This document shows positions 7,798-61,019 of a DNA stretch of 64,000 nt, in pieces. Below the pieces are notes generated by a model. That model made no database searches, was not told the DNA's origin, and was given only the letters and a program-made list of their open reading frames with translations. The stretch's first letter is position 1. The number at the start of each line of letters is the position of its first letter. The DNA is taken from contig CABJAM010000002.1 in assembly GCA_902363555.1 (NCBI GenBank), positions 489,709-553,708 on the forward strand, written 5' to 3'. Position numbers and translations under genes: made by a program. This DNA comes from Lachnospiraceae bacterium (GTDB lineage Bacteria > Bacillota > Clostridia > Lachnospirales > Lachnospiraceae).

Positions 7798-7827
7798 GTA
7801 ACCGTTCAAAAACGCCGAACGTTTACC
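7798..7827. repeat. palindromic intergenic repeat (GTAAC..GTTAC family) copy
   Basis: GTAACCGTTCAAAAACGCCGAACGTTTACC. Confidence 0.6.
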
Positions 7828-8139
7828 TAAAAGGCGCTGCGGCAGTCATCTTTAATAAGTTTATCATTTATCTGCAAATTCGACAAGGTCTTGGCGGCCT
7901 TTCTTTGGCTGGACCATAACAAGCCCAAGGGAGGGCAAACTGTTTTCCCAACTCACATATATGACTGGTGACGGATTTTATGAAAAGATACATTGCAGCA
8001 TCTATAAAAAACGCTTATAATAGTAATTACCCTAATTGACAAGCAGGTCATCAATCTCCCTGGGGAACTTGGGGGCAAATTATAATAGGAGCATAAATTC
8101 TAAGCATTTTAAGCCTGGCACTTTCTCTTGAGAAAAAAA

Positions 8140-8192
8140 GTGGCGGTAAAATATGTGGCGGTAAAAAGTGGCGGTAAAAAAGTGGCGGTAAA
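8140..8192 (+). repeat. four tandem copies of GTGGCGGTAAA (period 13-15 bp) upstream of the Crp/Fnr regulator gene
   Basis: Copies at 8140, 8155, 8168 and 8182, read directly from the sequence. Confidence 0.7.
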
Positions 8193-8256
8193 TATATTAT
8201 AGTAAATATGTTGCAGTCTGAAGAAAGCGTCTGTGAAAAAAAGCAAGGAGGTAATT

Positions 8257-8925
8257 ATGGAGCTTGAACAATATTTTCCATTCTGGAATAAATTAACTCA
8301 CGAACAGCAGCAGCGGCTGGAGGCCAGCGCAAGCCAGAGACAGTACCCGGCGGGCACCATCGTCCACAGTGGACGCCATGACTGCCTTGGTCTGCTTTTG
8401 ATCTTATCCGGCCAGCTTCGGGTTTACATAATTACAGAGGAAGGCAAGGAGCTGACGCTCTACCGTCTGTTTGACCGGGATATATGCCTGTTCACTGCAT
8501 CCTGCATTATGAACAGCATCCAATTCGATGTCACCATCAGCGCGGACCAGGACACCACGGTTTTACATATCCCACCGGACGTTTACAAACAATGTATGCA
8601 GGAATCCGCCCCGGCTTCCAATTATATTAATGAGCTGATGGCCTCAAGATTTTCAGATGTGATGTGGATTCTGGACCAGGTGCTGAGCAAAAAACTGGAT
8701 ACACGGCTGTCCGCATTTCTGATTGAGGAAAGTGAGCTTTCCGGCAAATCAAAGCTTGTTATGACCCATGAGCAGATCGCCAATCATCTGGGCAGCGCGC
8801 GGGAGGTCATTTCCCGAATGTTAAAATATATGCAAAATGAAGGTCTGGTAAAGCTTGGCCGAGGCAGTATCACACTGACCGATACCCCCGGGCTTACTCA
8901 GCTCGCACAGGCAAGCCTGCGATAA
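8257..8925 (+). CDS. Crp/Fnr family transcriptional regulator
   Basis: cNMP-binding fold plus C-terminal HTH (EQIANHLGSAREVISRMLKYMQNEGLV). AAGGAGG RBS 6 nt before the ATG at 8257. Confidence 0.85.
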   Translation: MELEQYFPFWNKLTHEQQQRLEASASQRQYPAGTIVHSGRHDCLGLLLILSGQLRVYIITEEGKELTLYRLFDRDICLFTASCIMNSIQFDVTISADQDTTVLHIPPDVYKQCMQESAPASNYINELMASRFSDVMWILDQVLSKKLDTRLSAFLIEESELSGKSKLVMTHEQIANHLGSAREVISRMLKYMQNEGLVKLGRGSITLTDTPGLTQLAQASLR

Positions 8926-9071
8926 AGCGGTTCCCACCCCAGCCAAATAGCGGCGCCCAATCCGTAAGAGGTTCCCGGACTAATGTCGACGCTCTAAATG
9001 TAACAAAGTCACAGAACGGTTTTCCGGTTTGTGTTATGATAAGCTCATCAAAAAGATAAGGAGTGATTCAT

Positions 9072-9380
9072 ATGTCAGTTATAACAATAAATAATAACAA
9101 CTTTTCACAGGAGGTACTCAATTCCGATAAGACCGTCCTTGTTGATTTCTTCGCCACATGGTGCGGGCCATGTAAAATGCTCACCCCCATCGTTCACGAA
9201 TTAGCCGATGAGCATCCCGAGGTTAAGGTTTGCAAAATCGATGTGGATCAGGAACAGGAGCTTGCACGTCAGTTTCAGGTGATGAGCATCCCCACGTTAA
9301 TCGTATTTAAGAACGGACAGCCGGTAAATAAATCCCTTGGCCTGAAATCTAAAAAAGATCTGGAAGCAATGATCAAATAA
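9072..9380 (+). CDS. trxA: thioredoxin
   Basis: WCGPCK active site. 102 aa. RBS AAGGAG. Confidence 0.9.
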   Translation: MSVITINNNNFSQEVLNSDKTVLVDFFATWCGPCKMLTPIVHELADEHPEVKVCKIDVDQEQELARQFQVMSIPTLIVFKNGQPVNKSLGLKSKKDLEAMIK

Positions 9381-9486
9381 CGAAACCGTTAAAAAGAGCC
9401 GAACCATTACCCATTAGTTTCCCCCCCCGCCGTGCTGGGGCGCGGCAGTCGCTATAATGGACGCGTTGCTTCCGCGTAACAAAAAA

Positions 9487-9525
9487 AGCCCGCCAGTTGT
9501 TTAAAACCGGCGGGCTTTTTGCTGC
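9487..9525. terminator. rho-independent terminator between convergent genes
   Basis: GCCCGCCAG...CCGGCGGGC stem followed by TTTTTG. Confidence 0.65.
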
Positions 9526-9556
9526 TTTGACATGATCGATTCCGTCCTGATGACCG

Positions 9557-59200: not shown

Positions 59201-59361
59201 TGAAACTTCCACACACCATTGAGACTTTTCACATATTTGGATGCGTTACGGTCACCATCCAATGCCTGCGCCACCGTCTCGTAGGCGCCGTAGGGCGAGT
59301 GCATCGGATACCGGTTGATCTGAGTGACGTGCTGATTTTCCCAGTCATTTCTTCTTTTCAT
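56221..59361 (-). CDS. lacZ: beta-galactosidase, glycoside hydrolase family 2
   Basis: GH2 sugar-binding, immunoglobulin-like and TIM-barrel domains and a C-terminal small-chain domain. AAAGGGG RBS before [10 protein letters not shown]. Confidence 0.95.
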
Positions 59362-59618
59362 AGATAATTTCCCCTTTACATATGACTCACCGGCTGCACA
59401 TATGGCCATTTAAAATCGCTGCGCGATGGACCATATGCCCGTAAAATTCACGTTTTTGTACGTCTGCACAAAAATGCGCAGACTTGTCTGAACGGTTACC
59501 ATATTTACGCAATGCCGATGATTTATACGAGTTATTTTCTTTATTATATTAAATTTAAGGGGTTTATAAAATGGCTGAGATGGTTTATAATTTATCCAAA
59601 ATGGTATGAGGTGATTGG

Positions 59619-60461
59619 ATGGCGGAGAAGTTTGTTAAAAATGTAGTGTACCGGTGCATCGGCAATGATTTCAACGAAGGAGTTATAGCCTGTGGCTATA
59701 TGCCCAAGCCCACAGCAGAAAGCAATCAGGAAAACTTTGTTATCGGCTATTACAGCGCCTTTTTGCTGCTTTCCGGTTCCGGCACATATATGGACAGCGA
59801 CGGACACACCACCGCCATAGCCGCCGGAGATTTTGTGCAAAGGCGGCCCGGCCGTATCCACACGACCCGTATCCATCCGGACGGCACGTGGCTGGAATTT
59901 TTTGTCTCCTTTGGGAAATCCGTTTATGAGTATATGCAGCGTCTGAACCTGCTTCCTCAGGATGATGTGACACATTCCGGATATGATATCACGCGGCACC
60001 GGGATTTTGATAGTCTTATATCCCGCCTGCGATCAACCAGGGAGGACGCGCTGGGGATGCTACTGCCCGATATCCAAAAGCTGGCTCTGGAAATGGCCCA
60101 GCCAGTGCTTGTTCCAACCGAAAAATCCACAGGCGTGTTGATCCAATCGGCCTGCGACGCTCTTTCTTCCGGCTTTTCTGAAAATATATCTCTGGAGGCT
60201 TTAAGCCGGGAGTATCATATGAGCTATGAAAGTTTTCGCAAGCTGTTTAAAAGCATTACCGGAAGCTCGCCGGCCAGGTATCGCTGTGAACAGCGGATGA
60301 AGCACGCACGGCTTTTGCTGAGCTCCGGCATCAGCATCAAAGAAACGGCTGAGATGGTGGGGTATGGGGATATTTATGCGTTTACGAAACAATTCACAAA
60401 AACGGTGGGGATGCCGCCGGGAAAATATATACGGCAGATTCGGGAAAATGCAACCTCTTAA
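59619..60461 (+). CDS. AraC-family transcriptional regulator (divergent from lacZ)
   Basis: Cupin N-terminus plus AraC HTH. GAGGTGA RBS. Confidence 0.9.
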   Translation: MAEKFVKNVVYRCIGNDFNEGVIACGYMPKPTAESNQENFVIGYYSAFLLLSGSGTYMDSDGHTTAIAAGDFVQRRPGRIHTTRIHPDGTWLEFFVSFGKSVYEYMQRLNLLPQDDVTHSGYDITRHRDFDSLISRLRSTREDALGMLLPDIQKLALEMAQPVLVPTEKSTGVLIQSACDALSSGFSENISLEALSREYHMSYESFRKLFKSITGSSPARYRCEQRMKHARLLLSSGISIKETAEMVGYGDIYAFTKQFTKTVGMPPGKYIRQIRENATS

Positions 60462-60704
60462 AACCTCCGGAATTTCTTCTGGAGGTTGTCATAACACATC
60501 GACATAAAAAGTATAGACAACGGTTTAGCCCTTGATATATCGCTCCTCACAGGTGTATTATGGTAAACCTACCCGATTGGGCCCGATTGCTGTCGACTTT
60601 TTCCTATTGACGTCGCCCACTTATGGAATTATGATAATTATACAATATCATTCAACTTTCCCGATATATTGTAATATTATTTTCCCAACTAATGCATATT
60701 AAAA

Positions 60705-60734
60705 GTAACAGTTCAGCCATTCTGAACTGTTACC
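60705..60734. repeat. palindromic intergenic repeat, a near-perfect copy
   Basis: GTAACAGTTCAGCCATTCTGAACTGTTACC. Confidence 0.7.
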
Positions 60735-60771
60735 ATTTGAATGATTATTGCCCATATTGCATTTTATGATG

Positions 60772-60947
60772 TTGGGGTCAAAAGGTCTTTTGACCCCTGA
60801 TACCTACGGATTTCTCCGCACTTCGTGCTCCCGAAATCCTAAAAACATTCGAAATCCGCCCTATTCGGGCTACTTTCTCATGTTTTGCGGGTCCCAAGGT
60901 CATACAATTGCATGCAAACATGCATTGTATGACCTTTTGACCCTGGT
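60772..60947. repeat. complex inverted-repeat structure, MITE-like or structured-RNA-like
   Basis: Terminal inverted repeats GGGGTCAAAAGGTC (60772-60785) and GACCTTTTGACCC (about 60923-60935). Internal palindromes GGGGTCAAAAGGTCTTTTGACCCC and GGTCATACAATTGCATGCAAACATGCATTGTATGACC. TGATACC / GGTATCA pairing. Confidence 0.5.
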
Positions 60948-60989
60948 ATCATTTTATATAGCGCGCATATAAAATGTCGGATCTGCGGT

Positions 60990-61019
60990 CTTACAGTTCA
61001 CTTTGCCTGAACGGTTAAG
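60990..61019. repeat. palindromic intergenic repeat, a degenerate copy at the TetR stop
   Basis: CTTACAGTTCACTTTGCCTGAACGGTTAAG. Confidence 0.5.

Follow-up and report, generated by a model that had tools for sequence, protein, structure and literature searches.

Intergenic palindromes of Lachnospiraceae are probably miniature, non-autonomous elements of the IS66 family

The short palindromes that recur between genes in this Lachnospiraceae genome are very probably non-autonomous MITEs of the IS66 family, belonging to its single-ORF 'ISBst12-like' group. This identity rests on the repeats, their target-site duplications, insertion polymorphism, and ends that are shared with autonomous IS66-family elements. 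We infer in addition that the elements are mobilised in trans and have no host function.

The window, a stretch of 64,000 nucleotides, contains 13 palindromes, about one per 5 kb, together with a single arm that lacks its partner and a truncated copy of a longer element. Each palindrome consists of two 12-nt arms, inverted copies of one another, around a centre of 4–5 nt (4–6 nt elsewhere), the sole exception being the 26-bp copy at 53073 with its internal deletion. The centres are often palindromic too, for example CCGG, ACATGT and ACAGGT. With up to two mismatches allowed, the arm GTAACAGTTCAG is found 24 times in the window, compared with 2.61 ± 1.66 expected, and 0 of 100 shuffles reached 24. 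Only the copy at 60705–60733 is a perfect 12-5-12 palindrome; the other window copies have 1–3 mismatches per arm. An earlier, sequence-only reading of this DNA had placed the repeats correctly to within 1–2 nt, and their frequency in the window is indeed far above chance. While the copies it listed exist, it overlooked those at 9854, 9892 and 18427, and its loop of 5–7 nt was too long. Of its two half-sites, 47217 is a lone perfect arm, but 59486 proved to be the right end of a 99-nt truncated element of the ~133-bp form described below. Its statement that all copies are intergenic holds for 11 of the 13, as those at 53073 and 60990 overlap stop codons. The features of the window are listed here, the palindromes without strand:

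7798–7826: degenerate palindrome, 48 nt upstream of the start of a Suv3-like helicase gene; no recognisable duplication (3/8)
9854–9882, 9892–9920 and 9930–9958 (array 9854–9958): three tandem palindrome units with a period of 38
11933–11961: palindrome, 101 nt downstream of the stop of a hybrid-cluster-protein (Hcp) gene; 7/8 duplication, CCTGCAAA (11925–11932) and CCTGTAAA (11962–11969)
18427–18454: degenerate 28-bp palindrome between a histidine-kinase stop codon and a response-regulator ribosome-binding site; 8/8 duplication ATAAACAT (18419–18426 and 18455–18462)
30082–30110: palindrome, 9 nt past an ABC-permease stop; a separate canonical terminator at 30116–30163
37917–37945: palindrome, 10 nt from a nucleoside-hydrolase stop; 8/8 duplication CTCCAAAT (37909–37916 and 37946–37953)
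47217–47228, plus strand: the lone perfect arm, without partner arm, probably a truncated copy
51605–51633: palindrome between divergent genes, 21 nt upstream of an arylsulfotransferase gene start; no clear duplication; bordered on its left by a partial arm, GTAACAG
53073–53098: 26-bp palindrome with internal deletion; 7/8 duplication GTCACAGT / GTCACAAT
55628–55656: palindrome, 46 nt past the stop of an AraC-GH39 gene; flanks 5/8; a separate terminator hairpin at 55666–55705
59401–59499, plus strand: truncated ~133-bp element of 99 nt (nhmmer E = 2.7e-14, profile positions 34–136), retaining hairpin A, spacer, hairpin B and the right terminal repeat CTGAACGGTTAC; left palindrome absent
60705–60733: the perfect palindrome, fold –15.3 kcal/mol, adjoining the 3' side of the Clostridiales-1 sRNA
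60990–61018: degenerate palindrome overlapping the stop of a TetR-family gene, on the other side of the Clostridiales-1 sRNA

A composite transposon around this sRNA was considered and rejected, since the outer flanks do not match. The family is found across many Lachnospiraceae genera, in more than 30 genomes and next to unrelated genes. Crude ORF calling puts 23 of 181 copies within ORFs, a point against the MITE reading. Rfam 15 gave no match on any copy, either at the gathering threshold or at E ≤ 10, and a literature search on the arm sequences and on Lachnospiraceae MITEs found no description of the family.

The flanks of the palindromes carry the signature of insertion. Across more than 30 Lachnospiraceae genomes, the 8-mers on either side are identical at seven or more positions in 42 of 178 copies (24%). 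At control offsets of ±1, 2, 5 and 10 the figure falls to 0–1%, and duplication lengths of 6, 7, 9 and 10 gave nothing. Within the window, 5 of the 13 copies have a duplication of at least 7/8, against a background of 0.085%. The other eight have no convincing duplication (0–5 of 8), which we attribute, short of proof, to their age.

The tandem array at 9854–9958 provides the corresponding empty site. It lies between the stop of a DUF362 gene and the start of a 91-aa ORF, both on the minus strand, and its units are separated by copies of the target 8-mer (minus strand: flank AAAAATAA, spacers AAAAATAG; plus-strand spacers CTATTTTT). Four relatives (84–92% amino-acid identity) have no gap here, the genes sharing 1 nt (TAATG). 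The window has 126 bp between them, most of it made up of the three tandem units (105 bp). The presence/absence comparison with related genomes that the sequence-only reading had proposed was thus positive at this one site, empty in the four relatives and filled in the window. Six contigs from near-identical strains (L001–L006, 99.9–100% identity) all carry the copies and show no insertion polymorphism. The 8-bp duplications and the empty site together indicate that the copies were inserted and did not evolve in place. At 53073, the arylsulfotransferase ORF takes its TAG stop from the first bases of the copy (GTAG) and is predicted to have been eight codons longer before the insertion; the C-termini of homologues are too variable to prove this truncation and give a weak 'IH' match.

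The palindrome is also part of a larger, full-length element of about 133 bp, in which the palindrome is followed by hairpin A, a spacer, hairpin B and CTGAACNGTTAC, with perfect 8-bp duplications bounding the whole. Its left end comprises the left repeat, 4–6 nt, and an internal inverted copy of the repeat, followed by hairpin A; the two ends match over up to ~21 nt. Palindromes without a duplication of their own turned out to be left ends of this element: for about 35 of them, drawn from many genera, a perfect 8/8 duplication lies 104–108 bp away. The 165 scorable copies include 50 solo palindromes and 54 full-length elements with a duplication. Overall, the elements measure 26–153 bp and have no coding capacity. 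The full-length element had no match among PLSDB plasmids. In hairpins A and B, 18 of 32 pairs covary, a strong signal. A purely parasitic element has no obvious need of such covariation, and the hairpins may therefore have a structural or RNA role besides transposition.

The ends of these elements link them to IS66. Autonomous single-ORF IS66-family elements that end in the same way (GTAACTGTTCAG or GTAACTATTCAG) and are flanked by 8-bp duplications are present in Geobacillus and Bacillus plasmids, in IMG/VR and in human-gut contigs. The element of pHTA426 has the ends GTA(A/T)CTATTCAGCCC, the duplication GACGAGTT and a transposase that matches PF03050 at 1.9e-64, and the 1812-bp metagenome element L163 has GTAACTGTTCAGAACCC at both ends, the duplication ACTTAAAT and a PF03050 match at 1.1e-45. 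Elements with the same ends also occur in B. thuringiensis pBMB0231, G. stearothermophilus pGS18 and a C. estertheticum plasmid, in six IMG/VR sequences and in nine metagenome sequences, mostly human gut (including L163, L152 and L164). Where the Lachnospiraceae repeats read GTAACNGTTCAG, at least 15 elements, whose ORF matches PF03050 (DDE_Tnp_IS66) or was retrieved by homology to such ORFs, read GTAACT(A/G)(T/C)TCAG. In the literature, the inverted repeats of IS66 start with GTAAGCG and are accompanied by 8-bp direct repeats (PMC11946415), and ISDge4, of the ISBst12 group, is described with GTAACTGCTCAGCA and an 8-bp direct repeat (PMC12898284).

The ISBst12 group (ISDge4, ISGst1 and the pHTA426 element) thus resembles the Lachnospiraceae family in its core, GTAAC(T/A)(A/G)(T/C)TCAGC, in its 8-bp duplication, and in a left end where the repeat is followed by a partial inverted copy of itself. 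However, its members are 1.6–1.9 kb long, whereas the window elements measure 26–133 bp and lack a transposase, and only the first 12–14 nt of the repeat are shared between the Lachnospiraceae palindromes and any autonomous element recovered. A parent with the same subterminal hairpin A and B sequences was not found among these IS66-family elements. Searches nearer to the copies were negative as well: tblastn of the window and of 119 copy-bearing loci detected no transposase of the IS66 type, a CxAHxRR motif search of 8-kb loci found no transposase, and clustering of ORFs from 0.93 Mb of copy-bearing loci gave no recurrent ORF and none flanked by inverted copies. A scan of the 8-kb loci for a parent IS, as end pairs 200–6000 bp apart with matching duplications, returned only two short pairs. 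As neither the window nor the 0.93 Mb of copy-bearing loci holds a transposase, we regard the elements as non-autonomous.

Since the arm equals the core of the IS66-family terminal repeat, GTAAC-N-GTTCAG, a copy of 26–30 bp amounts to both ends of a transposon, the left and the right, set back to back. A DDE transposase (TnpC-type, DDE_Tnp_IS66) encoded elsewhere would bind both ends and insert the element at a staggered 8-bp cut, whose repair would give the 8-bp duplication. The short palindromes could arise by two routes, between which we see an even balance. Either the transposase treats the left end, together with the inverted copy next to it inside the element, as a minimal transposon, or a deletion between the two direct copies of CTGAACNGTTAC shrinks the full-length element where it stands and leaves its original duplication intact. 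The latter route would be akin to the origin of solo LTRs and other solo-end remnants by recombination between direct repeats, in that such a deletion within the 133-bp form would leave exactly the palindrome and the first duplication; independent transposition of a minimal element fits the data equally well. Most window copies are probably old and immobile, given their divergence and the lack of a transposase nearby. Effects on transcripts, such as hairpins at 3' ends or the loss of coupling between the once overlapping DUF362 and 91-aa genes, would be incidental. A bolder version, which we consider doubtful, would have the 26–30 bp palindrome as a free-standing 'nano-MITE' of two IS66-type ends with nothing in between, which the transposase still recognises and moves, and at the same time hairpins A and B of the 133-bp form as a structured RNA or DNA module co-opted by hosts across Lachnospiraceae, for example as 3'-end protectors or as insulators between genes.

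The bias toward gene ends, whose absence would have told against the sequence-only reading, is real: a stop lies within 15 nt for 42 of 135 stop-side neighbours (31%), compared with 12 of 133 starts on the start side (9%). This excess would fit Rho-independent terminators or mRNA-stabilising 3' hairpins kept at gene ends by selection, as would the fold of good copies (–14 to –16 kcal/mol) and the TATTTTT that follows each of the three tandem units. Those T-runs, however, belong to the target 8-mer that was duplicated. The outer stem is AT-rich, and a T-run is missing from most copies. Several window copies fold weakly (–2 to –6 kcal/mol), the copies at 30082 and 55628 are directly followed by separate canonical terminators, and those at 7798, 51605 and 59401 precede genes or separate divergently transcribed ones. 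Nor are copies over-represented in convergent intergenic regions (24 convergent against 23 divergent copies, similar to the background of 83 against 88). A terminator would account for neither the duplications nor the 133-bp form, and we judge this explanation, which the sequence-only reading had offered as a terminator-like hairpin, very improbable. The bias toward gene ends is better ascribed to selection on which insertion sites are tolerated.

A shared protein-binding site, also suggested by the sequence-only reading, fares somewhat worse. The near-perfect dyad of 28–30 bp with its short, often palindromic centre, the conservation of the arm between genera and the presence of Crp/Fnr regulators near three copies would suit the operator of a dimeric host protein (a global regulator or a nucleoid-associated protein) or an 11-6-11 site of a tyrosine recombinase, dif- or attC-like. 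Yet one copy every 5 kb or so beside unrelated genes makes no regulon, the two arms vary independently and decay, and the duplications and empty site mark the copies as inserted; where a matching site has been demonstrated for a protein, that protein belongs to a transposase family, and the copies do not bracket gene cassettes. We therefore hold an operator or recombinase site to be very improbable. A Crp/Fnr (HcpR-like) operator in particular, suggested by the GTAAC...GTTAC ends and by regulators nearby, was rejected: the half-sites are 19 nt apart, the wrong spacing, and the neighbouring genes are unrelated. REP elements are mobilised by Y1/RAYT transposases, and Y1/HUH transposition leaves no target duplication. 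A REP-type origin, in which palindromes spread as single-stranded hairpins through a domesticated Y1 transposase (RAYT or IS200-IS605-like), would explain the general REP/BIME look of short, imperfect, abundant, intergenic and sometimes tandem palindromes that start with GTA, but is contradicted by the exact 8-bp duplication, by arms equal to the terminal repeats of DDE-type elements and by the lack of a recurrent ORF between inverted copies in the 0.93 Mb, so that it retains hardly any credibility. Of the 'REP/MITE-like' label in the sequence-only reading, the MITE half is thus borne out by duplications, empty site, IS66-type ends and the 133-bp form, while the REP half falls with the duplication.

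The IS66-derived MITEs of Lachnospiraceae are reminiscent of other bacterial MITEs, such as Correia/NEMIS of Neisseria, RUP of pneumococcus, MITEPsy and Nezha, which are likewise short, non-coding, intergenic and present in high copy, with terminal inverted repeats, duplications of the parent's length and predicted RNA hairpins. However, the parent family here is IS66, the commonest form is only 26–30 bp long and consists of two ends, and the full-length form has three local hairpins where others have one long foldback. Known MITEs usually measure 50–500 bp. What sets the Lachnospiraceae elements apart is their small size and the covariation of their internal hairpins. With the REP/BIME sequences of Enterobacteria and Pseudomonas they share a length of about 30 bp, the imperfect palindrome, modularity with other motifs, tandem clusters and a place after stop codons, whereas REP/BIME lack target duplications and depend on Y1 RAYT instead of having 8-bp duplications and DDE-type IS66 ends.

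An identity as IS66-derived MITEs accounts for a common class of palindromes between genes, present in dozens of gut Lachnospiraceae genomes, that might otherwise be taken for terminators, operators or small RNAs. As 26–30 bp lies below the size range of MITE finders, the family is probably under-annotated. The repeats can serve as insertion-polymorphism markers for strain tracking, and they reshape the ends of genes: the copy at 53073 provides a stop codon, and the array at 9854–9958 has separated two genes whose translation was coupled. Should the minimal palindrome itself be mobile, it would show how little an IS66-family transposase needs as a substrate, and such a 'nano-MITE', if real, would be roughly the smallest unit of mobile DNA known from bacteria.

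With up to two mismatches tolerated, we counted 24 occurrences of the 12-nt arm GTAACAGTTCAG in the window, compared with 2.61 ± 1.66 in dinucleotide shuffles; none of 100 such shuffles reached this count, confirming repeats beyond chance. Reading site by site revealed 13 palindromic copies and one longer element:

Palindromic copies, starts: 7798, 9854, 9892, 9930, 11933, 18427, 30082, 37917, 51605, 53073, 55628, 60705, 60990
Longer partial element, besides the 13 palindromes: 59401-59499

Each position given by the sequence-only reading proved right to within 1-2 nt, but its list lacked 9854, 9892 and 18427. 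The short variable centre it described also stands, though not at 5-7 nt: centres in the window measure 4-5 nt, except in the internally deleted 26-bp copy 53073. Only the copy at 60705-60733 is a perfect 12-5-12 palindrome among the window copies. A proposed half-site at 47217 is a lone perfect arm GTAACAGTTCAG within a short inverted repeat (GCAGCC...GGCTGC, 47217-47260) between MerR-family and amidase genes, and could be a truncated copy.

When the two 8-nt flanks of each palindrome were compared with one another, 42 of 178 copies showed at least 7/8 identity. Moving the right flank by ±1, 2, 5 or 10 nt reduced such matches to 0-1%, and lengths of 6, 7, 9 and 10 gave no signal; the duplication is thus exactly 8 bp long. 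A duplication of one exact length marks the work of a staggered-cut (DDE) transposase. In the window, five copies reach at least 7/8, where the background rate is 0.085%, and the duplicated 8-mers are mostly A/T-rich.

Window copies with a target-site duplication (left flank / right flank; identity)
37917: CTCCAAAT / CTCCAAAT; 8/8
18427: ATAAACAT / ATAAACAT; 8/8
11933: CCTGCAAA / CCTGTAAA; 7/8
9930: CTATTTTT / TTATTTTT; 7/8
53073: GTCACAGT / GTCACAAT; 7/8

An empty site is provided by the junction between two genes:

9557-9832, minus strand: 91-aa ORF
9959-11248, minus strand: DUF362 gene

The two genes overlap by one base (TAATG) in four relatives, whose proteins are 84-92% identical in amino acids to that of the window. 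In the window they lie 126 bp apart, mostly owing to three tandem palindrome units that are preceded and separated by the 8-mer AAAAATA(A/G). This presence/absence difference indicates that the three-unit block was inserted at the junction, uncoupling the two genes.

The duplications and the insertion evidence bear on other readings of the palindrome. A terminator-like hairpin, as the earlier reading had suggested, would have to account for the separate canonical terminator hairpins at 30116-30163 and 55666-55705, directly after copies. Moreover, most copies lack a T-run, the T-runs of the tandem array are duplicated target, and folding energies of the window copies span -2.4 to -15.8 kcal/mol. 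A shared protein-binding site, in the sense of a regulon operator, likewise fits neither copies that recur about every 5 kb next to unrelated genes nor the evidence of insertion. REP/RAYT elements are not known to leave a target duplication, and the palindromes carry an 8-bp one; from the proposed REP/MITE-like nature, the REP half is therefore disfavoured, while the MITE half is upheld by the duplications, the empty site and the IS66-type ends described below.

By crude ORF calls, 23 of 181 palindromes lie inside ORFs and 134 could be given an intergenic type. Their convergent, divergent and co-directional neighbours (24, 23 and 87) match the background (83, 88 and 351). The bias toward gene ends is real: on the stop side, 42 of 135 neighbours are within 15 nt, as against 12 of 133 on the start side, and seven window copies overlap a stop codon or lie within 10 nt of one. 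Such a pattern is consistent with the loss, through selection, of insertions harmful to promoters or ribosome-binding sites; given that the 8-mers are for the most part rich in A/T, a target preference may also play a part. Copy 53073-53098 supplies the TAG stop of an arylsulfotransferase ORF, whose old frame runs on for 8 codons downstream; the insertion appears to have cut these off, with homologue C-termini too variable to confirm the loss. Copy 60990-61018 overlaps the stop of a TetR-family gene. Between copies 60705 and 60990 lies a Clostridiales-1 sRNA (Rfam RF01699, 136.6 bits; 60798-60951, minus strand). The outer flanks of the two copies do not match as a duplication, so the pair seems to stem from two independent insertions and not from a composite element.

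Where a copy has no duplication of its own, it usually forms the left end of an element of about 133 bp, and perfect 8/8 duplications 104-108 bp away were found in about 35 cases from many genera.

Layout of the ~133-bp element, left to right
8-bp duplication
GTAACAGTTCAG, 4-6 nt, CTGAACTGTTAC
Hairpin A, e.g. GGCATCCGGCC-ATTGAAAATCGC-TTC-GCGATGG-GCCGGATGCC
Spacer, 3' end ACGTTTTCATACGG
Hairpin B, TCTGCGCAGTAAATGCGCAGA
CCTGG-CTGAACTGTTAC
8-bp duplication, identical to the first

The palindrome is the left terminal repeat plus an adjoining inverted copy, and the same 12-mer recurs at the right end. Among 165 scorable copies, 50 were solo palindromes with a duplication, 54 full-length with a duplication and 61 variant or decayed. 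A profile built from 45 full-length copies matches window positions 59401-59499 (E = 2.7e-14, profile positions 34-136), where the left palindrome is lost; this partial element accounts for the other supposed half-site, at 59486. Solo palindromes may move on their own as minimal elements, or may equally arise by in-place collapse of the 133-bp form via its two direct CTGAACNGTTAC copies. Repeated insertion and unequal exchange both fit the arrays of tandem units spaced by 8 bp (window 9854-9958 and the copy-bearing locus L063). Across 40 full-length copies from many genera (e.g. L007:3143-3275, another such locus), 18 of the 32 pairs in hairpins A and B have undergone compensatory change, and the outer stem of hairpin A alternates between GGCATCCGGCC, ATGCAAAATCC, TGCATTCGCCC and GCCTCGGGCG. 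The compensatory changes argue that the hairpin structure is under selection, for transposition or for host use. A 20-nt stretch at 62744-62763 (GATTTTGAATGGCCGGATGC), inside an ORF and without an adjoining palindrome, is a 95% match to the hairpin A module (blastn-short E = 4e-4) and may be chance or an old fragment.

IS66-family inverted repeats begin GTAAGCG and are accompanied by 8-bp direct repeats (PMC11946415); in ISDge4, which belongs to the ISBst12 group within IS66, the ends are GTGACTACTCAGCA / GTAACTGCTCAGCA and the repeat is 8 bp long (PMC12898284). We compared the palindrome with the ends of elements whose ORFs match the IS66 transposase family or are homologous to such ORFs.

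Ends and duplications of IS66-family elements
G. kaustophilus pHTA426 (PF03050 1.9e-64, zf-IS66): GTA(A/T)CTATTCAGCCC; GACGAGTT
B. thuringiensis pBMB0231: GTAACTACTCAGCTT; AATTTATC
G. stearothermophilus pGS18 (ISGst1): GTAACTATTCAGCC; AAAAGAAC
C. estertheticum plasmid: GTTACTGCTCAGCC; 7/8
Six IMG/VR elements: GTAACTATTCAG or GTAACTGTTCAG; perfect 8 bp
Nine metagenome elements, mostly human gut: same core; perfect 8 bp
L163, one of these nine, 1812 bp: GTAACTGTTCAGAACCC at both ends; ACTTAAAT

The 484-aa ORF of L163 matches PF03050 at 1.1e-45. By these comparisons the palindrome arm (GTAACNGTTCAG) is the core of the terminal repeat in single-ORF IS66-family elements. In several such elements the left-end repeat is also followed, after a short loop, by an incomplete inverted copy; in L163:956-1000 and the autonomous IS66-family elements L162 and L135 the loop is 4 nt, e.g. 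TTCAGAACCC-CTTC-GGGTTC. The likeness to the MITE palindrome is one of kind, weaker in the autonomous elements, where the inverted copy may serve regulation or transposase binding in this IS group. The palindromic left end is thus a family trait, extreme in the MITE. Neither the window nor the 0.93 Mb of copy-bearing loci among the matches listed contains an IS66-type ORF, so the elements are non-autonomous; among the elements recovered, no autonomous one shared hairpins A and B.

The window derives from a Clostridia gut bacterium and encodes sugar use and regulation; gut metagenomes hold contigs 99.9-100% identical to it. Relative to L001, an ENA scaffold otherwise 99.9% identical, it shows a 21-bp in-frame indel (19599-19619) inside a GC-rich (0.61) 1471-aa ORF (19518-23933), whose L001 counterpart has Fn3_assoc and CHB_HEX_C_1 domains. 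At 8233-16146, a hybrid-cluster protein (Prismane), a ferredoxin-like gene, two Crp/Fnr-family regulators, thioredoxin and FMN reductase form what looks like a nitrosative/oxidative-stress island, with three MITE sites in or beside it.

Scanning one genome per species for the exact pattern gave at least 119 matching stretches; among the matches listed, all genomes are Lachnospiraceae-type (including Fusicatenibacter, Faecalicatena, Lacrimispora, Eisenbergiella, Blautia, Parablautia, Otoolea, Limivivens, Hungatella and Oribacterium), and the genes beside copies are unrelated and differ from site to site. The palindrome matched no Rfam family, even at E <= 10, and we found no description of the family in the searchable literature or Rfam. 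It is very probably a MITE of a known IS family, IS66, whose unusual features are a very small, two-ends-only form and a structured 133-bp form. Decay is further advanced in the window copies than in those of Fusicatenibacter or Limivivens, which suggests that the family is old and inactive in this genome.
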